Part shown: piece by piece, positions 1,605 through 38,677 of the stretch
Position numbering within the stretch: position 1 is the first letter of the stretch
How the letters are laid out: every line of letters begins with the position of its first letter
IMG/VR virus record: IMGVR_UViG_3300045988_139913
DNA length: 38,677 bases
Source: a virus
Taxonomy: Duplodnaviria > Heunggongvirae > Uroviricota > Caudoviricetes
Reading direction: 5' to 3' (one strand)
Notes under the pieces: generated by a model
Databases searched by the model: none
What the model was told of the DNA's origin: nothing
The model's input: only the letters and a program-made list of their open reading frames with translations
Translations under genes and position numbers: made by a program

Positions 1605-1700
1605 TGAAGCGGCGCACGAAAAGCGCGAAAGCGTTTCAAATAAAATACGAAAACTCAAAACTTTCGCGCTTCAATTGAGACAGTTGTTTTATGTATGTCA
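1605..1700. other. Prophage right end (attR) with transposase-binding repeats (R1-R3 region)
   Basis: TGAAGCGGCGCACGAAAAGCGCGAAAGCGTTTCAAATAAAATACGAAAAC with repeated CGAAA motifs, as in the Mu right end. Confidence 0.75.
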
Positions 1701-2144
1701 GTTTCGTTTACATTTATACGTCTTAAAAATATTCACATCATCTCGGATATAAAGATTTTTTCCTGATTTATCAACGATAAAATACTTTATAACCGCAGGA
1801 TTTCTAGTCAAAGCATAGAGATAATCAGTCCCTTTAATCTTTTCATCCTTGTCTTGTTCGTCAATTTGGCCTGTTTCTATCTGAGTGTATAGTTCACCTG
1901 TATCAAGGTCTGTCCATGACCCCATATCAACGCCCATATGCATACGAATACCGTGGCAGGTCCAAAAACCAGAGGCAGGGGCTTTATTTGCAACACTCTT
2001 ATCTGGATCTATCCCGGCGGACCTTAAGACTGCATCAGCAGCCACTTCAGGATCAAAATCTTTTTCTTGAGCGTGATTGACTGAGGAGGCGGTTAGTACG
2101 AATAGGCTGATGATGGTACTGATTAGCAATTTTGATTTTTTCAT
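1698..2144 (-). CDS. Secreted/periplasmic protein of unknown function (148 aa); moron between mom and attR
   Basis: N-terminal Sec-type signal peptide MKKSKLLISTIISLFVLTASSVNHA; own GGAG RBS; strongly AT-rich relative to flanking phage DNA; two Cys (C63, C146). Confidence 0.7.
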   Translation of the reverse strand: MKKSKLLISTIISLFVLTASSVNHAQEKDFDPEVAADAVLRSAGIDPDKSVANKAPASGFWTCHGIRMHMGVDMGSWTDLDTGELYTQIETGQIDEQDKDEKIKGTDYLYALTRNPAVIKYFIVDKSGKNLYIRDDVNIFKTYKCKRN

Positions 2145-2188: not shown

Positions 2189-2926
2189 CTAATCAGAACT
2201 GCTTTTTGGGTATGGCTGAATCCTGAATAGTTTGGTATTTAGCCGCTTTCTTGCTCGCTTGTTCAGGAACCTGATGTAGCGATACTGATTAAATTTGTGC
2301 ACCACGGCACGCTCTTTATTAGCCCGTAAATACATGCCTCGTTGTCCACCGCGCTTAATTGCGTTCATCGTTATCTCGTGATACCACTCACCATCCAGCT
2401 CGTAGAACGTGCTTTCATGGCTGCCAATAAAATCAAAATTTGACGCCTGATACACAACGCCAGCACGTCCGCAGCGTTCGTCTGCAAAAGACTGAACCCA
2501 CTCCACTGACGGATACAGTAACCTTATGGTTTTCAGTGCATAACTGATGGCCCGTGATTCAGAGTTGCGGGGCATGTCGTCGTGTAGCCACATGCGGTTC
2601 AACTCCATATAGCCCCGGTTATCCGTTTCAAGCACGACACGACGACCAGAGTTGGGGTTAAGGGCATATCCCCACTGGAGAACGCCAACCAGATCGCGTC
2701 CGCTGAATACTCCCAAGTGGAGGTAAGAGTTATTCACAAAACGGCGGGAATAGTGCTTTGTCTGAATAATTGTGCGGGCCAGCCAGCAGGATATGGTTTC
2801 AACGCGCAGCTCCTTTGAACCATAGCCAACAATCTGGCTTTCATACTCAATAACGCACGGTTTCGTCAGAATGCGTGATTTCTTCTCTTTTCCCACAATG
2901 TTTCTCCGTGGGATGCTCGCAGGCAT
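2189..2926 (-). CDS. mom: Mom DNA-modification protein
   Basis: Overlaps the 3' end of com as in Mu; last gene before the right end region; true start uncertain (ORF-track start is the longest possible). Confidence 0.8.
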
Positions 2927-3035
2927 TCAGCATTATGATATGACGTTTGCAACGCGGACACCTGATTTCAATGTGATCAAAGGAATCCGCCTTAAATAAC
3001 AGTTTGTTGCAGTTTTTACAGCGAATTGATTTCAT
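2847..3035 (-). CDS. com: Com, zinc-finger translational activator of mom
   Basis: 62 aa, [34 protein letters not shown]... with CxxC...CxxC; AGGAGG RBS; matches Mu Com as I recall it. Confidence 0.9.
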
Positions 3036-3093
3036 CTCACCTCCTTTGCATCAATTCGCCACTATCTTAAAAAACATCGTGGGTTGAGTGTGG

Positions 3094-3150
3094 TTATTGG
3101 GGCATAATCGATCTGTATTGCCGATCGATTTGATTGATTCGATCGTCGTT
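3094..3150 (-). promoter_or_regulatory. Pmom control region: dyad TTATTGGGGCATAA (candidate C-activator site) plus three clustered GATC (Dam) sites
   Basis: TTAT-N6-ATAA dyad at ~3094-3107 about 60 bp upstream of com ATG; GATC at ~3110, 3123, 3141; matches the known Dam/OxyR/C-regulated architecture of Mu Pmom. Confidence 0.6.
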
Positions 3151-3711
3151 TTCTATATGCGTTCGTTTCGCGGGGTGTTTTTTATACAGAGTTGACAGAG
3201 CCACATCATAGATCAATGCAACCTGCTTGCGGGGGATTCCTTGTGCTAATAAACGCCCGGCCTGCTCCCATTCCGCTTTGGTTAGTTTAGGTGGTCGCCC
3301 ACCAATACGGCCTTTATTTCTGGCGGCAGCAAGTCCAGCCATCGTTCGCTCGATGATTAGTTCTCGTTCCATTTCAGCCAGGGCACCCATAACGTGGAAG
3401 AAAAAACGCCCCATTGGAGAAGATGTGTCTATGCTGTCGGTAAGACTGCGAAAATTAATCCCTCGCTCCCGTAGTTCCCCGACGAGGGAAATCAGATGTT
3501 TCATGCTTCGCCCGAGGCGATCCAGTTTCCAGACAACCAGTGTGTCACCTTTTTGAAGGCGCTTTAACGCGCGTTTTAATCCAGGTCTGTCTGTCCTTGT
3601 TCCGCTTAATTTATCTTCAAATATTTGTTCACATCCTGCACAAACAAGAGCGTTTCGTTGCAGGTCTGTATTCTGGTCATTTGTTGATACCCTTACATAG
3701 CCAATCAGCAC
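3094..3711 (-). CDS. gin: Gin serine DNA invertase
   Basis: N-terminus MLIGYVRVSTNDQNTDLQRNAL typical of Gin/Hin/Cin/Pin resolvase-invertase family; adjacent to gix site. Confidence 0.95.
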   Translation of the reverse strand: MLIGYVRVSTNDQNTDLQRNALVCAGCEQIFEDKLSGTRTDRPGLKRALKRLQKGDTLVVWKLDRLGRSMKHLISLVGELRERGINFRSLTDSIDTSSPMGRFFFHVMGALAEMERELIIERTMAGLAAARNKGRIGGRPPKLTKAEWEQAGRLLAQGIPRKQVALIYDVALSTLYKKHPAKRTHIENDDRINQIDRQYRSIMPQ

Positions 3712-3765
3712 TCTGGATCTCCCGTTTAAAAGCGCAAATCATGCCATGCAGGCCGGAAACAACCA

Positions 3766-3799
3766 TTATCTAAAACCTCGGTTTACAGGAAACGGTAAA
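3766..3799. repeat. gix recombination site (gin-proximal inverted repeat of G segment)
   Basis: TTATCTAAAACCTCGGTTTACAGGAAACGGTAAA; inverted copy at ~6535..6569. Confidence 0.85.
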
Positions 3800-4736
3800 T
3801 CAGGCTTCTGGCTCATTACAGAAAAACCAGAACGGCGCAGATATTCCGGGAAAAGATACCTTCACCAAAAATATTGGTGCCTGCCGCGCATATAGCTCAT
3901 GGCTGAATATTGGTGGCGATAGTCAGGTCTGGACAACCGCGCAATTTATTTCGTGGCTGGAGAGTCAGGGAGCATTTAACCATCCTTACTGGATGTGCAA
4001 AGGCTCATGGGCTTATGCAAATAATAAGATCATTACAGATACAGGTTGCGGAAATATTTGTCTTGCAGGTGCTGTGGTGGAAGTTATTGGCACTCGCGGC
4101 GCAATGACCATACGCGTTACTACGCCGAGCACGTCCAGCGGTGGCGGAATTACTAACGCTCAATTCACCTATATTAATCATGGTGATGCTTATGCTCCTG
4201 GCTGGCGACGAGACTACAACACGAAAAACCAGCAGCCTGCATTTGCTTTAGGGCAAACAGGAAGCACTGTCGGAAATGATAAAGCTGTTGGCTGGAACTG
4301 GAACAGCGGGGTTTATTGCGCCAGCATCACCGGCGCATCAACATTAATTCTTCATTTCAATATGAATACGGGTAGTTGTCCAGCAGTACAGTTCCGCGTG
4401 AATTATAAGAACGGCGGTATCTTTTATCGTTCAGCCCGTGATGGTTATGGTTTTGAAGCCGACTGGTCCGAATTTTACACCACCACCAGAAAACCTTCAG
4501 CAGGAGATGTTGGTGCATATACTAAAGCGGAATGTAATTCACGATTTATTACAGGTGTCCGTTTAGGAGGACTGTCATCTGTTCAAACATGGAATGGGCC
4601 TGGTTGGTCTGATAAGTCAGGTTATGTCGTTACAGGTTCAGTTAACGGAAACCGTGACGAATTAATTGATACAACTCAGGCAAGGCCAATTCAGTATTGC
4701 ATTAATGGGACGTGGTATAACGCGGGGAGTATTTAA
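3774..4736 (+). CDS. Sv' alternative tail-fibre variable segment (no own start; expressed only after G inversion as Sc-Sv' fusion)
   Basis: Frame open from the gix core (NLGLQETV, identical to the Sc/Sv junction in S) to stop at 4736; ORF track only reports it from an internal ATG at 3993. Confidence 0.75.
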   Translation, partial: NLGLQETVNQASGSLQKNQNGADIPGKDTFTKNIGACRAYSSWLNIGGDSQVWTTAQFISWLESQGAFNHPYWMCKGSWAYANNKIITDTGCGNICLAGAVVEVIGTRGAMTIRVTTPSTSSGGGITNAQFTYINHGDAYAPGWRRDYNTKNQQPAFALGQTGSTVGNDKAVGWNWNSGVYCASITGASTLILHFNMNTGSCPAVQFRVNYKNGGIFYRSARDGYGFEADWSEFYTTTRKPSAGDVGAYTKAECNSRFITGVRLGGLSSVQTWNGPGWSDKSGYVVTGSVNGNRDELIDTTQARPIQYCINGTWYNAGSI

Positions 4737-4738
4737 CG

Positions 4739-5272
4739 ATGATGCACTTAAAAAACATTACTGCTGGCAATCCTAAAACAAAAGAGCAATATCAGCTAAC
4801 AAAGCAATTTAACATCAAATGGCTTTATACAGAGGATGGAAAAAACTGGTATGAGGAACAAAAGAATTTCCAGTCTGATACGTTGAAAATGGTCTATGAC
4901 CATAACGGCGTTATTATTTGTATTGAAAAGGATGTTTCAGCAATTAATCCAGAAGGCGCAAGCGTCGTTGAATTACCTGATATTACAGCAAATCGCCGGG
5001 CTGATATTTCGGGTAAATGGATGTTCAAAGATGGTGCGGTGATAAAGCGAACTTATACCGGGGAAGAGCAGAGGCAGCAGGCAGAGAATGAAAAACAAAG
5101 CCTGTTGCAACTTGTCAGGGATAAAACCCAGCTATGGGACTCACAGCTACGGCTGGGCATCATTTCCGATGAGAATAAACAGAAATTAACCGAGTGGATG
5201 CTCTATGCGCAGAAAGTCGAATCCACAGACACCTCCAGCCTGCCGGTAACATTCCCCGAACAACCAGAATGA
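4739..5272 (+). CDS. U' tail-fibre assembly protein (alternate orientation set)
   Basis: 177 aa immediately after Sv'; tail-fibre assembly (Tfa)-like; convergent with U. Confidence 0.75.
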   Translation: MMHLKNITAGNPKTKEQYQLTKQFNIKWLYTEDGKNWYEEQKNFQSDTLKMVYDHNGVIICIEKDVSAINPEGASVVELPDITANRRADISGKWMFKDGAVIKRTYTGEEQRQQAENEKQSLLQLVRDKTQLWDSQLRLGIISDENKQKLTEWMLYAQKVESTDTSSLPVTFPEQPE

Positions 5273-5398
5273 GAAAGGCCCGTTATCGGGCCTTAATTTT
5301 ACTCAGGCTTTTGTGGCCATCCAGGCTTTTCCATATCCACATGACTGCGGAAAGCAAGGAAATACAAAATAACAAAAATGATAATAATTGTGCTGGTA

Positions 5399-5884
5399 TT
5401 ATAGCGTCGTTTTCACATCCTCTGCGCTGCTCTCTTTGCCGCTTTGTTCGTCTGGAACAGCGGGCCACTCAATATCCGTCGCGGTTGATGTATCAATACG
5501 CATAAGCAGCACACGATATTTTTTCCATTCAGCCAGTACAGTGATTTCTGCTTCTGTCGCCATCCCTGCGTCAACAGCATCCTGCCGCCAGGCAATTTCT
5601 GTGTTCGCAATCTCGGCTAAATCCTTTTTCTTCTGCTCTTTTAATGCGATTAACTGCTCTGTTGTTGGTTCTGATACATCAATCCATGTAGGGAAACCAG
5701 ATTCATCACGGCCTCTCTTTTTTCCCTCTGGCGGTCTTCCCGTAAACTCTTCATACATATCGTTTGTGACTGCCACCAAATCGTCAGGCCATGCGCCTGA
5801 TTTTTCATAGTCCGGTTTCATGGATTCAAAGAAAAACGTATTATTCCTGGCACTATAGAATATTTTACTGGACATGATTAACAC
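5399..5884 (-). CDS. U: U tail-fibre assembly protein (currently expressed set)
   Basis: 161 aa directly downstream of S, Tfa-like. Confidence 0.75.
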   Translation of the reverse strand: MLIMSSKIFYSARNNTFFFESMKPDYEKSGAWPDDLVAVTNDMYEEFTGRPPEGKKRGRDESGFPTWIDVSEPTTEQLIALKEQKKKDLAEIANTEIAWRQDAVDAGMATEAEITVLAEWKKYRVLLMRIDTSTATDIEWPAVPDEQSGKESSAEDVKTTL

Positions 5885-7065
5885 CCCACACCAATACAGA
5901 AGAATGGTTTAGAAACAGCAACCCCAGACCTTTCCATTAACGTGACCTGCATATCGCGATCATTTAATCTTTTAACACCCGCAATTGCACTTGCTATCGA
6001 GTCACCAGCAACGTTACAGGCTAACAAACCAAAGCAACGAACAGGCCAACCAACAGGAAACGGGGCAGATGCCCAGCCACTGGCATCAGTATTTCCCCAA
6101 CACCATTGAAAAATGATGCCATTTGGAAAACGTACCCAGCCAGCATCGGCCATCGCCTGGGTAAAATCACTGTTTTTTGTATACCCCTGAATGCTCCATC
6201 CATTCTGGGGAATTAACTGCCTGATATTTCCATCCAAAGTAAATGCAACCTTGCGGCGGTCAGAAATATTGCCTGCCGGAGACAATGCAACATCTATGTA
6301 GTTCGCGCCATTTTCCATTATTCCGCAAATGAGCGATGACATAATCGCTCCGCCAAATGAGAAATCGACTCCATTTGCACTTCCTGCAACCGTGCTCTTG
6401 TTTCTGATGTGAATACCAGAAAAGCCATTATCTTTTTCAATAAGTAATTCATTCCCAATTAACGAGAGAATGCCCTTGATAATCACATCACCGTTAACCA
6501 CCCCGCCATATGTTGATAACGCTTCCGAAGCTAATTTTACAGTTTCCTGTAAACCGAGGTTTTGGATAAACAGCGGCTTATTGGGAATATCTGCTCCGTT
6601 CCGGTCTTTTGCCAGACGGGCATTGGCATTATCCATCGCAATTTTCACCGCTTTTGCGGTGGCTGCCAGCGTTTCACTGGGGCTGTCAGTGGCACTGGTT
6701 AGCTGAACGAGTCCTTTTTTGTTCAGGCTGGCATCCCAGATATCCAGATTTTCACGTGCTGTACGCTGTGCTGATGCCCCGGCAGTTTTAATTTCGCTGA
6801 GGTTATTTTTTATCAGCAGCGCGTTATTGCTCATAATGGCTTTAATGGACAGTGCAAGCTGGTTTAATTTTGTTTTATCCGGTTGAATACCGGCTTCTTC
6901 CAGCGTGTTTAATAACTCCGCCTGCACAATATTAAACCAGTCCATGCCGGGCCATGTGATAACATTATTCCCGTCACCTTCTGAAAACCAGCGAACGATA
7001 GCACTACGCTGGGCGGATACGGGCGGCATGACGGTTACGCCGCTGTCGTTATCAATATAAAACAT
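5878..7065 (-). CDS. S: S tail fibre (Sc constant part ~6538..7065 fused to Sv variable part inside G)
   Basis: 395 aa; spans the gix site at ~6538-6561 (NLGLQETV); start overlaps stop of upstream gene (TAATG). Confidence 0.85.
   Translation of the reverse strand: MFYIDNDSGVTVMPPVSAQRSAIVRWFSEGDGNNVITWPGMDWFNIVQAELLNTLEEAGIQPDKTKLNQLALSIKAIMSNNALLIKNNLSEIKTAGASAQRTARENLDIWDASLNKKGLVQLTSATDSPSETLAATAKAVKIAMDNANARLAKDRNGADIPNKPLFIQNLGLQETVKLASEALSTYGGVVNGDVIIKGILSLIGNELLIEKDNGFSGIHIRNKSTVAGSANGVDFSFGGAIMSSLICGIMENGANYIDVALSPAGNISDRRKVAFTLDGNIRQLIPQNGWSIQGYTKNSDFTQAMADAGWVRFPNGIIFQWCWGNTDASGWASAPFPVGWPVRCFGLLACNVAGDSIASAIAGVKRLNDRDMQVTLMERSGVAVSKPFFCIGVGC
6535..6569. repeat. gix recombination site inside S (Sc/Sv junction)
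   Basis: TTTCCTGTAAACCGAGGTTTTGGATAA, inverted repeat of the site at 3766..3799. Confidence 0.85.
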
Positions 7066-7607
7066 TAGTTATCTCCGTCATGGTAAACAAATTTATAAAT
7101 CTGATGTGCGGGTTTATATTTCTCCAGTAAACATTCCAGCGCACCCGATTCATAAACACGTAACGGCGTCAGAACATTATCCAGCACCGTTGCGTTGCGA
7201 TAATTTTTAATACCGTAAATATTGACCTGCGTAACCCACTGGCCTTCTGTGGAATCCGTCAGCCTGACGGTAAAACCGTACTGCGCAGCCAGCCATTCAT
7301 AAAAGCGCCGACTCAGATTGCCGGTCATACGCATTTTATTCGCGGCAGCCCGCTGGCGTTCGGACAGGGTGCCGTTTTCGCTGGTACAGTCCGGCAACCC
7401 CAGAAATGATTCCCACTCCCCCAGATACCAGCGGGATGTGGACGGGAAACGCTCCCGCAGCATTTGCCGCGCATCATCCGCCGCAGTGGCAATCACGTCG
7501 CTGATGGCCTGCGCCAGCGCAGATAATTTGCTGTCGGGGCTTTTATTCCAGGCAAGCCCTGACGGCAGTAATTGCAGAAAGGCCGTCTGATAGGGTGTTA
7601 CAGCCAT
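7065..7607 (-). CDS. Tail protein (Mu gp48-like)
   Basis: 180 aa between baseplate R and fibre S, Mu gene order. Confidence 0.7.
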   Translation of the reverse strand: MAVTPYQTAFLQLLPSGLAWNKSPDSKLSALAQAISDVIATAADDARQMLRERFPSTSRWYLGEWESFLGLPDCTSENGTLSERQRAAANKMRMTGNLSRRFYEWLAAQYGFTVRLTDSTEGQWVTQVNIYGIKNYRNATVLDNVLTPLRVYESGALECLLEKYKPAHQIYKFVYHDGDN

Positions 7608-8680
7608 TCAATTGTCCCCGGTGTTAACAGTTCCGTATTCTCCGAACGCTGGATCTCTGTCGGGAAACGCACTTCAAAATCATCCAGACCGGTAACACCT
7701 GCCACCGCACGGATAATACGGGAGGGGGCAAGTGCGCCGCCCGGCGTCACCTCATTAAAAAACATGGTATTAATGGCGTGAGTAATAGCCTGTTTCAGTT
7801 CGGCTGTCTTCGGTGATATATAAATCCGTGGATTTACCGGCTTTGCCTTTGGCGCAAATACCGTGACATTTACACCATCAGGCTGCCCGACAATCAGGCC
7901 GGTTATCGGGTCAGTATGACCGGCGATATAATCCGCCACACGTTCCACATCTGCCGGTTGTGGAAAAATATTGATCCGGTTATCCATAACAAACGTCACC
8001 CCGACTGTGCCACCGCCTTTCCATGTCGGAAAACACCAGGCACGGGTAACGCCGCTGACTTCACGTGCCCAGCGGACGTAATCAAACTGATTACCGCCGA
8101 ACGGAGGATACTGGACACGATATTCCAGCCGTGACAGCAGCTCCGCTGCACTCTCAATATCTGCCCCACCGGAAAACCCTTTTACAGTGATGGCATCGGA
8201 AACAACACAGGCAACCGGGGTGATCAACGTTAAAAGGGTATTCTCACCGGTATTTCCTGCTTCACCGGCAGCCAGTGCGGTAACGGTAATTTCCGTCGTT
8301 CCTGCACGGTCAATCACAATGGCATCAGCCAGGCTGTAAACCACACCATCAGCACGCTGCCAGCGTGTACCGGCAGGAATGGTGGTCGCTGCCGATGTGG
8401 TGACAGTCAGCGGGCCGCTGGCGGCTGTCGCCTGTTTGCGGCGCACGCCCCAGAACCGGCAGTGCTCCAGCAACTCATCTTCATCTGCTGTCGACGGGAT
8501 AATCTGCCGTCCAACCCATGAAATATGCTCGTGACAACCGGCAGCAAGGCCTGCCTGAGCATAAGCAATGGCACTCAGCGTTTTTTCACGGGCCTGAGGC
8601 CAGCTACCCGGCAGGCGCTGTTCAATATTCTGTTCTGTACGGGCAATCAGCGATGATAATGTCGGTGGTGAATAAGCCAT
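7598..8680 (-). CDS. R: Baseplate J-like protein
   Basis: 360 aa; position and size as Mu gp47. Confidence 0.75.
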   Translation of the reverse strand: MAYSPPTLSSLIARTEQNIEQRLPGSWPQAREKTLSAIAYAQAGLAAGCHEHISWVGRQIIPSTADEDELLEHCRFWGVRRKQATAASGPLTVTTSAATTIPAGTRWQRADGVVYSLADAIVIDRAGTTEITVTALAAGEAGNTGENTLLTLITPVACVVSDAITVKGFSGGADIESAAELLSRLEYRVQYPPFGGNQFDYVRWAREVSGVTRAWCFPTWKGGGTVGVTFVMDNRINIFPQPADVERVADYIAGHTDPITGLIVGQPDGVNVTVFAPKAKPVNPRIYISPKTAELKQAITHAINTMFFNEVTPGGALAPSRIIRAVAGVTGLDDFEVRFPTEIQRSENTELLTPGTIEWL

Positions 8681-30329: not shown

Positions 30330-30359
30330 ATATTCAGTAATAACATAAAAGGAAATATT

Positions 30360-30719
30360 ATGGCTGAACAAGAACAACATACGGTGTCGGATGATGAACA
30401 AAACCCAGATTTCGAAACAAACCAGAAAGACACCCCTGTTAATAACCAGGATAAATTCTTTGGTATAACCGGTTTTATGCTGGTCGGTAATCTGATGATT
30501 AAGCTGATTGAAAACGGTGTTATCAACATGCACGATGCTTATGACATCATCAGAAATACACAGGCCAGCTATAAGAACCGAAAAACGTTCGAAGAACTGG
30601 ATTTTGAGGCCGATGAGTATGTTGATCTGCTGCTCAATAAGCTCTGGGCTTCAAGGCAGGATATTGTTAATGCCGGGAACCTCTCATCAGAGCACACAGA
30701 TACTGACGCTGTGGAATAA
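30360..30719 (+). CDS. Opposite-strand acidic protein (119 aa) of unknown function
   Basis: ATG with AAAGGA RBS; highly acidic, hydrophilic product with one hydrophobic stretch; AT-rich codon usage; minus strand of this stretch has no plausible ORF. Confidence 0.5.
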   Translation: MAEQEQHTVSDDEQNPDFETNQKDTPVNNQDKFFGITGFMLVGNLMIKLIENGVINMHDAYDIIRNTQASYKNRKTFEELDFEADEYVDLLLNKLWASRQDIVNAGNLSSEHTDTDAVE

Positions 30720-30972
30720 CCGCTGAATCATCAACGCCAAGCTCACGACAAACAATATTGTTGTGGGCTTTTTTGTTATGCAACAAAACTTCGTCGCGTA
30801 TGAGATGAATTTCCCGTGTCATAATTTCAAGGGCCTCTCTCGCAGAAAAGCCTTTACTGATTGCAGTCTCAATAACATCGCGCATACGCTCAAGCATCTT
30901 AGCTTTCACCAGTTCTTCATCCAGGTCTTTAGGCGTAAATTTAGTTTCATTATTCATATTATTCACCTTCAC
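30667..30972 (-). CDS. Early-region protein (101 aa)
   Basis: In-series with early operon; 3' end overlaps the plus-strand acidic ORF by ~50 nt. Confidence 0.55.
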   Translation of the reverse strand: MKVNNMNNETKFTPKDLDEELVKAKMLERMRDVIETAISKGFSAREALEIMTREIHLIRDEVLLHNKKAHNNIVCRELGVDDSAVIPQRQYLCALMRGSRH

Positions 30973-33140: not shown

Positions 33141-33560
33141 TCAGTACAGCAGAGGCTCGCGCAGTGGTGCCGGAATATGTCGCAGCGATAACTGAACCGC
33201 TTTCAGGGCAAGCGAGGAATAACAGCAGCGCGCCCAGCCTTTTGCCATTAACCGGTAATCGCGCCAGATACGCTGCCACATTTCACGGGCTTCAGGGTCT
33301 GATGCGCAGATGTATTCCCGGTCCATGACGTACTCCCATAAATCCACGTTGAACGCACCTCCAAATGCAATGGCGCGGGATATGCTTTCGCCGCAATAAC
33401 GCGCACAGATGCTGTAATGGTCGAAAGCAATCAGGTACGTCTTTTCACCACAATCATCAACTTTCCTGGCGCAAATAAACTCGCGTAATTCACCACCGTT
33501 GTTATTGCGTTCCTGAATTCGGATTAATGCCTGAATTTCATTTCGGATTTTGACGTTCAT
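33141..33560 (-). CDS. Early-region protein (139 aa)
   Basis: Co-directional ORF in early operon. Confidence 0.55.
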   Translation of the reverse strand: MNVKIRNEIQALIRIQERNNNGGELREFICARKVDDCGEKTYLIAFDHYSICARYCGESISRAIAFGGAFNVDLWEYVMDREYICASDPEAREMWQRIWRDYRLMAKGWARCCYSSLALKAVQLSLRHIPAPLREPLLY

Positions 33561-33580
33561 TGTCAGCGTTCCTTTGCGAA

Positions 33581-33850
33581 TTAATGTTTAACCGCATTCA
33601 CCGGATGTGGTACTAAATCACATTCAGCTTCCATACCCACTTTCTTCATAGTGGTCAGCATCTCATCTTTGGCCTTTTTAATAATTTCAGGAGCCATAGT
33701 CAGGACGATATTTGCCAGTAAATCATGAGGCCCGGTATTTTCCGTTGGCGAGATATCTGCAAGACATGCTTTTGCATCCAGAACTTCTCTGCGCCCATTG
33801 CAACCGTCACTACTTTCCAGCCATGTAAACTCAAAGATAACCTTTGCCAT
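33581..33850 (-). CDS. Early-region protein (89 aa)
   Basis: Co-directional ORF in early operon. Confidence 0.5.
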   Translation of the reverse strand: MAKVIFEFTWLESSDGCNGRREVLDAKACLADISPTENTGPHDLLANIVLTMAPEIIKKAKDEMLTTMKKVGMEAECDLVPHPVNAVKH

Positions 33851-35314: not shown

Positions 35315-37303
35315 TTAAATGGCTTTTTTACGTCTGTTCTGTTCCAGAATATCCAGCGAATGATTCAGATATTCATCACGCTCAGTTTCGTATTCATCAT
35401 CACGCTCCTGATTCTTCACTCGTTCCGTATTACCGGAAGGCCGGAAAATGCCGACAATTCGTGATTCTGGTGCTTCAGGTTCGGCTATCTGCGGCAGCAG
35501 CTCTGCCACTTCCAGTGCATCCATTTGTTTCTGTGCCTTAATTGCTGCTTTCGTCGCAGATTTCAGTTGTTTCTGGCGGCGGCGATATTCACGGCCTGCC
35601 GCAGCATCATTAAACGCAACAGGTGCCAGACATTCCGCTTCACAGATAAACCGACCGTCAAGGGTGTAGCAATAAACCGTGCTGTGTAACTGCTGTGGAT
35701 CAAATCTGACCACAACTTTTTTTACTCCGGCATTCATTAACGCCATGTTGTAATAAACGTTTTTCGCACCTTTAAGGGAGCCACCAACTTTAAGCGCGAA
35801 CTCGCCTTTACGTGAAACGTTCACTGCCTCGGCAGGCAGTAACAGCATCCGTTTTTGCTCTTCGGTAGGCTTACGCACAATCGTTCTGGCGTATTCACGC
35901 TCAAAAACGTCATCAAACGAAAGTTTGCCTCCGCACATTTCTGTTTCACGGCCTGTTCTGGCATTGAACATCGCCACACCTTCGGCAAGGGTTTTCAGAA
36001 ACAGCTCTGCATCAACAGCGCGGTCGCCATAGTTATCAGGTTTTGCCTGCGGATTAGGCCCCGTATATGCGCCAGCCAGTGCCGGATGCTTATCAACGTA
36101 TTCCTCAAGCCCACCAACACCGAAAGCACGTTCAACAGGTTTTGCCTGGCCCCAGCCTTTACCGGCAACAACGCTTGTCCAGTGCATTTTCGCCCCCATC
36201 AGTAAAAACAGTCCTTTTGGATCGTCCTCTTTTACCTTAAAGCGGTAGCGATTGGGCGCGCCTCCCGTCAGCCATTTATTCGCAGCACCACGGGTGTTAT
36301 CAATGGTGATGTGAAAATCCTCCGGGATACCGTAGCGAGTCACAACATCCATGAACGAGAGGCGAATTGAATCAATGTTCTCGCTCACATCGCAGCGCCA
36401 GCCCAGAATTTTTCGGGTTTTCACATCCTGCCAGAACCATGTTTTCGGACGGATCACATCACCGTTAAACCAGCGTACAAAGACGTTATGCAGATAACCG
36501 TCGCCGTTGATCCACTGCATGGCGTCCAGGTGTTCCACAGTTCGCTGCTGTGCCGGTATCAGATGCATCAGTGCATGTTCACCTTCACGACAGGCAACAA
36601 CCATTGCCTCGTCCAGTTGCTGAATCCGGCGAAAGGCCGTGGCACGGGAGGGAATACTCCAGCCATGCTCGCGGGCTGCCAGTTCCAGACGCTCATAACA
36701 TTTGCGGAAGGCGGGTTTTTCCGGTCGCAGATAATCTGCAATCAGAAACTGCCAGGCATCCTCGTCAAATTCACTTTTGTGAACATTGCGACGGGATGCT
36801 CCACGTCCATCAACAAGTGCAGCCGCCCAGTCAGGCTTCGCAAACTTCTGTACCTGGTAATACTTGTCCCGCAAAGTGGATGCGCTGACCTGGTAATGCC
36901 CTGCAACGGTCGCAAAAGCCGTTTTCGTTGAAATCCCCTGGTTCAGCATTTCGTCTGCAGCCTGAACCGCAGGCAACCATTTTTCAGCAAGTCTGCGCTG
37001 GGAATCGCTGGCGTTATCCCATTTGCTCCACAGTGCCTCACGATCATAATCATGGGCTTCCAGCGTGGGGCGGGCGATTTCAAAATACCCCTGACTTGTT
37101 TCAATTCTCCCTTGTTGCAACAGAATTTCAGCACGTAATGCGACAGGGAATGATTTGATATTGAATTCAAATGATACACCTTTAGTCCCTGCAACCTGCC
37201 TGAACTCCCAGCCTTCTCTTTGTGCCTTACGTGTAATGTTAGTGGCTTGCTTTGGTAAACCTGCCAAACCGAGCAACTCTTTTGCTGTATACCATTCTTT
37301 CAT
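35315..37303 (-). CDS. A: DDE transposase MuA (D108-type N-terminal domain)
   Basis: 662 aa; C-terminal ~600 aa as Mu A; N-terminal ~60 aa diverged and homologous to the N-terminus of the adjacent repressor. Confidence 0.95.
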
Positions 37304-37310
37304 AGCGCAC

Positions 37311-37532
37311 CTAGTATCGAGACGGCCAAATATCTTGCGGTGTCATTCCCAGTGCATCTGCAATGATTTTCTCCGCTTTCGGATATCTCTTATCCAAAGC
37401 ATTTTTTAATGTTGAAGACGAAAGATGATTAGATCTTCCCAATTCAGCTAGTGACATATTGCGTTTTCGTAGCTCTGCAACGATGTCAGCTCTGTGCCAA
37501 TCTTGGCGGTTAGTTCTTTTATTCATATGCAT
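37311..37532 (-). CDS. ner: Ner DNA-binding regulator (D108-type)
   Basis: 73 aa [73 protein letters not shown]; first gene of early operon. Confidence 0.9.
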
Positions 37533-37717
37533 TTCATGTAATCCTTTCAGATTCCCCCGTGAGCTACGCTATAAAGTAGCTCACGGCATATCGTGCAATG
37601 TAGTGTGGAATCATTTTTAAATCAATAGTGATTTGAAAGGATTTATCATGATTTCATATAACAGCATGATTTTTATATGAATTTATTTTGTCTCTATTGA
37701 AATCACTAGGATTTTAA
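37533..37717. promoter_or_regulatory. Immunity/operator region between ner and c (divergent Pe/Pc promoters, repressor operators, transposition enhancer)
   Basis: AT-rich 185-bp divergent intergenic region with repeated TAGTGATTT-type motifs. Confidence 0.7.
37557..37586. promoter_or_regulatory. Ner operator: two perfect 11-bp inverted repeats separated by 8 bp
   Basis: CCGTGAGCTAC-GCTATAAA-GTAGCTCACGG; matches the D108 ner operator architecture as I recall it. Confidence 0.7.
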
Positions 37718-38242
37718 ATGATGTCTTTTGAAATCAAAGAATGGTTTAATGCGAAAGAGCTGGAAGGGATGCCTGGTGTACCAAAGTTGGCGACTAACAT
37801 TACCAGGAAAGCTGTGGCGGAAGATTGGGTAAAACGTCAGCGTCACGGTGGGAAAGGTGTCGCTTATGAGTATCACATCAACAGTCTGCCAGAAGAAACA
37901 CGCAGGGCCATTAAAGGAGCCTCACTTTCTGATAAACCAGTGCATACATCAATCGTCCATACAGTTGATGAGAGGCTAATTTATGCAATGAGTTTCTTAA
38001 CACCAGATGAGCAGGCCGCAGCAGTGGAGATCATTCGTGTAGCAGGGATTAAAGGACTTATGCCTACAATTGTCAGTAAAGATAAGGCATTAGAGGCATT
38101 AGGGATTACTGTGGAGCAACAGAAAACCCTGCAAACTCTTCAGGCATTACCACCGGAAAAAGTGAGAGAGATTTTGTCTCAGTATGAAGGCAAAGAACAT
38201 AATTTCCCTGTAAGAGAAAACGATGTAAAGAAAGCTGTATAA
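37718..38242 (+). CDS. c: Immunity repressor c (D108-type)
   Basis: 174 aa, divergent from ner, pointing toward attL; N-terminal domain homologous to the MuA N-terminus ([25 protein letters not shown]). Confidence 0.85.
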   Translation: MMSFEIKEWFNAKELEGMPGVPKLATNITRKAVAEDWVKRQRHGGKGVAYEYHINSLPEETRRAIKGASLSDKPVHTSIVHTVDERLIYAMSFLTPDEQAAAVEIIRVAGIKGLMPTIVSKDKALEALGITVEQQKTLQTLQALPPEKVREILSQYEGKEHNFPVRENDVKKAV

Positions 38243-38399
38243 CAACCAGGTAATAGCTAAGACATAAACTTCACTCCAGGTAATTACATATGTAAGATAC
38301 TCAAACAGTGATGATTGTTTTTGACACACATCACTTGCTGAAAGCCTGGTTGTTACCGTTTTTGAAGCATTTTTGAAGCTGTACTTGAAATGATGCGTG

Positions 38400-38581
38400 A
38401 AGTAATTGCTTTTCGTGTCTTTAATGAATCAAAAGCTGTTTCCAACAATCTTTCGCGTTTCAAGATGTAACGGCTAAAATCTGTCCTACAGGCTTGCAAG
38501 CCCCACTAAATCTAATCCCGCCAAATACCGAATAATCCAATGTCCTCCCGGTTTTTTTCGTACTTCAAGTGAATCAATACA
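38400..38581. other. Prophage left end (attL) with transposase-binding sites L1-L3
   Basis: ...CCGAATAATCCAATGTCCTCCCGGTTTTTTTCGTACTTCAAGTGAATCAATACA is the reverse complement of the Mu left terminus; additional TTTCG(T/C)G repeats at ~38421 and ~38450. Confidence 0.8.
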
Positions 38582-38586
38582 CCCGC
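38582..38586. repeat. Target-site duplication CCCGC (left-end side of prophage)
   Basis: Identical to 1600..1604. Confidence 0.8.
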
Positions 38587-38677
38587 GCATTCGAGGATAT
38601 GAATCCGGTTGAAGGGCTGGACGAGATGCTGGTAAGCGTGAATGCTGCTAACCCGGCAGGAGATTTTAAGCCCCCAA
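38582..38677 (+). pseudogene. Portal gene of flanking phage, continuation 3' of the insertion (runs off window)
   Basis: After removing one TSD copy the frame continues ...NEAR-AFEDMNPVEGLDEMLVSVNAANPAGDFKPP. Confidence 0.6.

Follow-up and report, generated by a model that had tools for sequence, protein, structure and literature searches.

The window analysed here is the whole 38,677-nucleotide stretch of DNA, and it holds a Mu-like prophage integrated at positions 1605-38581 in E. coli sequence. The ends of the prophage match the left and right ends of Mu, a 5-bp CCCGC target duplication flanks it (1600-1604 and 38582-38586) with host sequence otherwise contiguous, and it aligns collinearly with Mu (94-98% identity), including the A/B transposition genes and the late and tail genes. 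Because it has Mu-type ends, the 5-bp duplication and collinearity with both Mu (AF083977) and the phage genome Mu_3F6 (LR595867.1), it belongs to Muvirus. A segment of 2,804 bp (3766-6569), bounded by two 34-bp inverted repeats and adjoined by the serine DNA invertase gene gin, takes in the variable part of the tail-fibre gene S, and with a probability of roughly 0.9 we read this region as an invertible G segment carried by a transposable prophage of the Mu kind in the E. coli chromosome.

In the recorded state S runs on the minus strand from 7065 to 5878 and encodes 395 aa, made up of a constant N-terminal part, Sc, and a variable C-terminal part, Sv. Sc (6570-7065, minus strand) lies outside the segment and carries the Pfam domain Phage_fiber_2; it is identical to Mu S at 175 of 177 positions across residues 1-177 and matches PDB 5YVQ and 8JU3 over residues 1-184, and the start of S overlaps the baseplate gene upstream by a single base. 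The octapeptide NLGLQETV occupies residues 169-176 of S, after which the frame continues (...KLASEALS...) into Sv (5878-6535, minus strand), which is joined to Sc here and has a gp53-like C-terminal domain (Pfam Gp53-like_C, 32 bits; cut-off 24.9). The chaperone gene of this state, U (5399-5875, minus strand; 158 aa; Pfam Caudo_TAP, E = 7e-36), starts with an ATG 2 nt past the S stop, the same arrangement as in Mu; the open reading frame listing also offers an upstream GTG at 5884 as an alternative start. With 43 of 128 aligned residues identical to Mu U, the protein is not of the Mu U type. A first-pass annotation made from the sequence had already read the constant part of S through the gix core (NLGLQETV) into Sv and then U, and the coordinates given here (7065 to 5878, followed by 5875 to 5399) agree with that reading.

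The gin-adjacent gix site (3766-3799) reads TTATCTAAAACC-TC-GGTTTACAGGAAACGGTAAA and was identified by repeat search, comparison with Mu_3F6 and direct reading, while the gix site within S (6536-6569), which codes for (I)QNLGLQETV, reads TTATCCAAAACC-TC-GGTTTACAGGAAACTGTAAA on the minus strand. An automated repeat search returned arms of 43 nt (3766-3808 and 6527-6569) that are 86% complementary, and the 34-bp limits were set from overlaps of the window with Mu_3F6 together with direct reading. The two repeats are identical at 32 of 34 positions, with mismatches at positions 6 and 29 and a perfect 22-nt centre that in both copies equals the Mu gix. Their consensus is TTATC(T/C)AAAACC-TC-GGTTTACAGGAA, that is, 12-bp half-sites about the asymmetric central dinucleotide TC, with the two sites in inverted orientation. 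Shuffling positions 2500-8500 100 times gave longest exact inverted repeats with a mean length of 11.7 nt and a maximum of 14, so the inverted repeat is far above chance expectation. The two inverted gix sites of about 34 bp proposed earlier around a 2.8-kb segment are present at the coordinates assigned to them.

The other half of the segment is Mu-like and would be silent in this state. Sv' (3774-4736, plus strand; 320 aa), an alternative Mu S'-type C-terminus, opens with the same NLGLQETV octapeptide, and since a TAA stop at 3771-3773 immediately precedes it and its first Met comes only at 3993, the frame is genuinely start-less. The stop is created by a T at position 6 of the gin-proximal gix, where Mu has C. 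Sv' is identical to Mu Sv' at 308 of 320 residues and matches residues 169-488 of PDB 8JU3, a Mu S/S' fusion, with E = 2.9e-216. It is followed by U' (4739-5272, plus strand; 177 aa; Pfam Caudo_TAP, E = 2e-36), the paired tail-fibre assembly chaperone, identical to Mu U' at 172 of 177 residues. This bears out the proposal of a start-less plus-strand Sv' followed by U', as does a best BLASTP E-value of 4.7 between Sv and Sv' the further proposal that the two are unrelated in sequence. U and U' both contain Caudo_TAP, and their pairwise resemblance is slight (E = 0.2). Between the convergent U' and U lies a G+C-rich, putatively terminator-like hairpin (5275-5294), called by a consensus scan alone and located in a stretch common to the window and Mu. 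Beyond it, 49 nt on the minus strand (5299-5347, ...PGWPQKPE-stop) are a vestige of a Mu-type U gene's 3' end and align with Mu 33454-33502. The Mu match ends at 5347, and judged by this alignment the vestige marks the left breakpoint of a cassette replacement.

The gin gene (3094-3711, minus strand; 205 aa) has a GTG start as in Mu, and its product is recognised as an invertase by Pfam Resolvase (E = 8e-50), Pfam HTH_7 (E = 3e-17) and the PHROG 'DNA invertase' family (E = 5e-95). An inactivated gin, together with a single observed orientation, had been named as what would refute the switch, and gin in the window carries no inactivating mutation: Gin is identical to Mu Gin at 192 of 193 residues and to the Mu_3F6 Gin at 205 of 205, and it keeps the nucleophilic Ser9 in the motif VRVSTNDQ. 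At nt 580 a TAA to CAA change at Mu's stop codon adds a 12-aa C-terminal extension (residues 194-205), the Mu protein being shorter by those 12 residues. The Mu recombinational enhancer, with its Fis-binding sites, is located in the 5' part of gin, and here nt 1-123 agree with Mu throughout, followed by three synonymous differences at nt 124, 129 and 144. By its near-identity to Mu Gin, its Ser9 and its two domains, Gin looks functional.

When the window is compared with Mu_3F6, the interior of the segment is identical at 2736 of 2736 positions but lies in the opposite direction between flanks that are themselves identical. Of the two variable repeat positions, Mu_3F6 keeps position 6 on the gin flank (outer half) and has position 29 moved with the segment (inner half), a pattern that places the exchange inside the 22-nt centre. 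An exact-protein look-up of U, with exact U on 22 public contigs examined, provided a census of Mu-like prophages carrying the gp53-like cassette in public assemblies: six are in the window's state (L008/L012, L009, L010, L011, L013 and L019) and three have the segment flipped (L015, L016, which is Mu_3F6, and L018), with the 193-aa and 205-aa Gin alleles each found in both states. We considered an assembly artefact and rejected it: each repeat spans no more than 34 bp, the same junctions turn up in assemblies made independently, and the two SNPs are reshuffled as a real inversion predicts. These comparisons indicate that inversion has occurred in the lineage of the window phage. The first-pass annotation had described an intact host-range switch of which the window records one state, and had counted against it the sight of only one orientation along with an inactivated gin. 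All parts of the switch are present and both orientations are seen, in the window versus Mu_3F6 and in six versus three prophages. The recorded state should be read as the consensus of a lysogen assembly only, and a culture may contain both states.

Two features of the window's allele could be taken to mean that the switch has since frozen, namely the 12-aa extension of Gin and the T for C at position 6 of the gin-proximal gix, which together would have stopped inversion and fixed the observed state. A precedent is found in SfMu, where a single-base change in one repeat has been proposed to hinder inversion (PMC4406740), but that change adjoins the central dinucleotide, whereas the differences here fall at positions 6 and 29 and leave the 22-nt centre perfect. 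Moreover, the identical gin allele and gix variant are found in both orientations, in the window, L009 and L012 as against Mu_3F6 and L018, and among these the flanks and the segment interior are 99.96-100% identical. We consider a frozen switch extremely improbable. Only slightly less remote is the idea that inversion was the work not of the phage's own Gin but of a related host or prophage invertase (Pin, Cin or Hin type) acting in trans, or of homologous recombination between the 34-bp repeats. The Gin, Cin, Pin and Hin invertases cross-complement, and many such recombinase genes lie beside tail-fibre cassettes in E. coli, where parts of the region have matches in 1,377 of 5,426 genomes; the SNP pattern, too, locates the exchange no finer than a 22-nt stretch. 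However, gin is intact, adjacent and near-identical to the biochemically proven Mu enzyme, 22 nt of perfect homology would be a very poor RecA substrate, and a second enzyme is not required by any of the data.

In the proposed mechanism, inversion by the phage's own Gin would act on an S gene that is split between constant and variable parts. Sc, outside the segment, would be transcribed with the late tail operon, and its frame would run via the 34-bp gix into the variable part that happens to face it. In the recorded state Sc is predicted to be expressed as a fusion to the gp53-like Sv, with the matching U expressed downstream, while Sv' and U', lying in the opposite direction and apparently lacking a promoter or start codon, would be silent. 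Gin would bind both inverted gix sites, cleave them at their 2-bp centre (TC) and rotate the strands, flipping the 2.8 kb and joining Sc to the Mu S'-type Sv', with U' behind it, probably giving fibres for a different receptor. The 34-bp repeats, the G(+) and G(-) host ranges, Ser9 and Fis are published background (PMC4406740, PMC3575834). We infer the help of Fis and the enhancer, the use of promoters and the change in host range by analogy with Mu biology, and a change of adsorption specificity on inversion is further suggested by the unrelated Sv and Sv' and by the 96% identity of Sv' to Mu S'. With Sv' joined to Sc, the phage is expected to resemble Mu G(-).

As a switch of the Gin/Cin/Pin/Hin type, the segment is a textbook Mu-type G segment that is intact and belongs to a system already known, with one tip of a rare type. 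Its value is mostly confirmatory, as a clean natural example of Gin and its G segment in which the same phage can be seen in both states in public data, and it leaves current understanding unchallenged. Mu is the same type of phage, with the gene order gp48-S-U / U'-S'-gin-com-mom, and it shares its gix sequence of 34 bp and its NLGLQETV junction with the window. This is in contrast to its segment length (3,060 bp, against 2,804 bp in the window) and to its S of 504 aa, against 395 aa; Mu Sv and nearly all of Mu U are replaced in the window (5348-6535) by the unrelated gp53-like Sv and a different Caudo_TAP chaperone. Mu_3F6 is essentially the window's phage: beyond the segment the two share 99.95-99.99% identity, and they have the gin allele and the gp53-like cassette in common. 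Its S is a 488-aa fusion of Sc to Sv', its segment being opposite to that of the window, and it is a phage-genome deposit whereas the window contains an integrated copy with target-site duplication; literature searches for its name and accession found no paper describing it.

The possibility that the window is simply in Mu's G(+) state was rejected, as Mu S/U and the half expressed here share no similarity at the DNA level. The earlier label of G segment suits the Sv'/U' half, which is Mu-like at 96-97% identity, but the Sv/U half is unrelated to S/U of Mu, D108 and P1; likewise, in the comparison with the fibres of Mu, P1 and D108 that had been suggested, Sv' corresponds to Mu S' and Sv matches none. 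No DNA match of Sv to Mu was obtained. Among 50,697 phage records Mu_3F6 is the sole match to the gp53-like Sv cassette, and a search of 5.8 billion sequences placed Sv in eight protein clusters. A tblastn search of 72,556 PLSDB plasmids gave no match to Sv, and the exact gix-Sv junction pattern was absent from the viral contigs, species-representative genomes and metagenome contigs scanned. Sequence and profile searches of the PDB with Sv returned only the shared Sc part or chance-level matches, and an AlphaFold2 monomer model from an 8-sequence alignment had a mean pLDDT of 42.9, too low for a fold search.

Outside the Mu-like phages, sequence matches place this rare cassette in P1-like, P2-like and lambdoid elements also. 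The C segment of P1 and P7, with Cin, has the same design of a split S, two Sv/U pairs and an adjoining serine invertase, and its Sv'/U' region aligns with window 3808-5347 at 87-94% identity. Reference P1, P7 and D6 are without the gp53-like cassette, whereas a P1-like contig (L014) has a P1-type Sc followed by the gp53-like Sv and exact U, which makes its S 679 aa long. What sets P1, P7 and L014 apart from the window is a different constant part, a different invertase (Cin, 186 aa) and a different crossover site beside cin. In a lambdoid side tail fibre of E. coli MLI104K2 (NZ_CP116925.1, L006) the gp53-like tip, at 97% DNA identity, is joined at the ...LGLQET... motif with a gix-like relic retained, but this fibre is not invertible, with no second site or invertase nearby within the annotated stretch. 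The presence of the module in Mu-like, P1-like, P2-like and lambdoid contexts indicates that invertible cassettes and a conserved junction motif serve as exchange points for host-range modules. On even odds, we propose that Sv/U is a receptor-binding module outside those characterised so far in the Mu, P1 and P2 families, which would give a 'G(+)' host range unlike Mu's specificity for E. coli K-12, and that the two-tip cassette moves as a unit between Mu-, P1- and P2-like phages via gix or LGLQETV-coding sites. The receptor of the gp53-like tip would be relevant to phage engineering and to host-range prediction. In the P2-like prophage of E. coli 720632 (NZ_CP025842.1, L005) and in L017 the cassette is present in full, as Sv-U-vestige-U'-Sv', at 92-96% identity, and it has the same crossover sites and an adjoining recombinase gene but a P2 H-type constant part; in E. 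coli 720632 it is the Sv' side that is expressed, and U' is interrupted by IS600.

The window holds an intact inversion switch of the Mu type, and both of its states occur in nature. A repeat search of the window found inverted arms at 3766-3808 and 6527-6569 (43 nt, 86%), within which the limits of the 34-bp gix sites, 3766-3799 and 6536-6569, were set by the overlaps of three BLAST segments against Escherichia virus Mu_3F6 (LR595867.1). Read directly, the repeat is TTATC(T/C)AAAACC-TC-GGTTTACAGGAAAC(G/T)GTAAA; its copies are identical at 32 of 34 positions and share a perfect 22-nt centre equal to that of the Mu gix sites, while in shuffled sequence exact inverted repeats average 11.7 nt, the longest being 14. 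The first-pass annotation, made from the sequence alone, had described two inverted gix sites of about 34 bp bounding the segment, an S gene running through an NLGLQETV core into Sv and then U, a start-less Sv' opening with the same octapeptide on the other strand ahead of U', and an Sv and Sv' unrelated to each other, and every element of this description was borne out. S (7065 to 5878, minus strand, 395 aa) spans the gix repeat as ...PLFIQNLGLQETVKLASE..., with NLGLQETV at residues 169-176, and U (5875 to 5399, minus strand, 158 aa) begins 2 nt past the S stop codon. On the plus strand Sv' (3774-4736) opens with NLGLQETV, has no methionine before 3993, and is followed by U' (4739-5272); a TAA stop at 3771-3773 lies immediately 5' of the Sv' frame because repeat position 6 is a T. 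Apart from the octapeptide, Sv and Sv' have nothing in common (best E = 4.7). A second inverted repeat, 3822-3847 and 6584-6609 (26 nt, 88%), encodes NGADIP(N/G)K both in Sc and in Sv'; after inversion its copies would be close direct repeats inside one S protein, and it is more readily read as a motif that recurs in tail fibres than as a site of recombination.

The adjoining invertase gene gin (3711 to 3094, minus strand) encodes Resolvase and HTH_7 domains, with Ser9 present. The protein is identical to Mu_3F6 Gin and matches Mu Gin at 192 of 193 residues, and over the common 193 codons all DNA differences from Mu except one are synonymous. A T to C change has turned the Mu gin stop TAA into CAA, adding 12 residues (QIDRQYRSIMPQ; 3094-3129, minus strand); further Mu-like prophages of E. 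coli share this 205-aa allele, and each of the two alleles is found with either segment orientation. By sequence comparison, the gin 5' region is nearly identical to that of Mu.

That the window records one of two states is confirmed by Mu_3F6, which holds the opposite orientation. Segment and flanks align with the window on opposite strands, and the interior is identical at 2736 of 2736 positions. The gin-proximal site of Mu_3F6 combines the outer half of the window's gin-side site (T at position 6) with the inner half of its Sc-side site (T at position 29), and the other gix site has the reverse combination; such junctions are what a crossover in the middle of the repeat should yield. Among Mu-like prophages carrying the gp53-like Sv/U cassette, the window's state is found at public loci L008/L012, L009, L010, L011, L013 and L019, and the flipped state at L015, L016 (Mu_3F6) and L018. 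Thus both states are seen and gin is intact, rather than there being a single orientation beside an inactivated gin. We note that two independent contigs, the P2-like L017 and the Mu-like L018, both end at locus position 7081, 5 nt into the inverted repeat coming from the Sv' side, and that contigs with U are often short (< 5 kb in 26 of 41 index blocks); the shared ends may be assembly breaks from mixed orientations in the sequenced cultures. In L019, S is 373 aa long, 22 codons of Sc just ahead of gix being absent, with N at the junction (...ATGGATANAAACCTCGG; ~4300-4320), which could stem from faulty assembly or from loss of sequence at a pseudo half-site, GGATAA.

In the Mu model, Gin dimers on two gix sites synapse and are activated by Fis on an enhancer, and cleavage at the central dinucleotide via Ser9 is followed by rotation and religation (PMC3575834, PMC4406740). 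The window's switch would follow this established model, a Gin-driven flip at the gix sites; transcription presumably comes in from the late tail operon, which lies upstream of Sc, and this would leave only the Sv/U pair facing Sc expressed. How Fis and an enhancer take part, how promoters are used and that host range changes with orientation are inferred by analogy with Mu, in the case of Fis and the enhancer from the near-identity of the gin 5' region. Hosts of Mu G(-) include E. coli C, Citrobacter and Shigella sonnei, among others (PMC3575834, PMC4406740), and similar behaviour is expected of the Sv' state. Five defining features of the Gin/G-segment family were checked and found, and the switch is a member of that family. 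As such it is ordinary and already known, a virtually identical phage of opposite orientation being in GenBank; the sole difference from Mu, D108 and P1 is the rare, uncharacterised Sv/U module on the expressed side.

The remaining parts are close to those of Mu: Sc is identical at 175 of 177 residues and matches PDB 5YVQ and 8JU3, and U' is identical at 172 of 177. Comparison of the two variable parts with fibres of Mu, P1 and D108, which had been proposed for predicting receptor specificities, showed Sv' to be Mu-like (308 of 320 identical to Mu S'; PDB 8JU3, E = 2.9e-216). Window 5348-6535 (Sv and nearly all of U) finds no counterpart in Mu DNA. By Pfam, Sv has a Gp53-like_C domain (32 bits, cut-off 24.9) and U is a Caudo_TAP chaperone, and PDB searches found no solved relative of the gp53-like Sv. 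Downstream of the new U, at 5299-5347 (minus strand), the final 49 nt of a Mu-type U (...PGWPQKPE*) survive as a vestige, which also accompanies the cassette in P2-like copies. This vestige beside a stretch unmatched in Mu shows that the cassette took the place of an earlier Mu-type Sv/U pair, the breakpoints lying at ~5347 and at the gix site.

BLAST of the whole window against Mu (AF083977) and Mu_3F6 shows 1605-38581 to be a Mu-like genome in reverse complement, with 99.95-99.99% identity to Mu_3F6 and 94-98% to Mu. The Mu left end is at 38581, the right end begins at 1605, and a 5-bp target duplication, CCCGC, lies at 1600-1604 and 38582-38586. The host flanks (1-1604 and 38582-38677) are DNA of another prophage, comprising its terminase large subunit and portal gene, and in E. 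coli genomes lacking the insert both are contiguous within that portal gene. These ends and flanks identify the window as a Mu-like prophage that integrated by transposition, as opposed to DNA packaged in a virion. Stretches 30330-30931, 33576-33830 and 37116-38221 match Mu_3F6 and have no Mu DNA match. The third of these takes in the repressor/immunity region close to the left end, and 38222-38581 is only 79% identical to Mu, so the immunity type is probably different from that of Mu. Between mom and the phage right end, an ORF of 148 aa (1698-2144, minus strand) is absent from Mu and present in Mu_3F6 and related prophages; it has no Pfam match even at E <= 1.

The gp53-like cassette is rare. 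Mu_3F6 is its only match among 50,697 phage records, none of 72,556 plasmids matches, and it is found in two of 5,426 complete E. coli genomes. In one of these a P2-like prophage carries the entire invertible cassette beside a recombinase, and its U' contains an IS600 insertion; in the other (L006) the same gp53-like tip forms part of a non-invertible lambdoid side tail fibre, whose junction keeps a degenerate gix-like relic (~8099, minus strand; GTTATCGAATACCTCGGTTTACAGGAAACTATAAA). Among 5.8 billion proteins, homologues make up only 8 clusters; they come from E. coli and Citrobacter braakii, and all start at the ...LGLQET... motif. The conserved junction seems to be a site at which tail-fibre modules are generally exchanged. 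An exact-protein look-up placed U on 22 contigs, among them Mu-like prophages at differing insertion sites, a P2-like element and a P1-like element whose S is 679 aa long and adjoins cin, lydA/B and darA. Turnover of G-segment cargo is common, since further E. coli Mu-like prophages hold other cargo again in their G segments.
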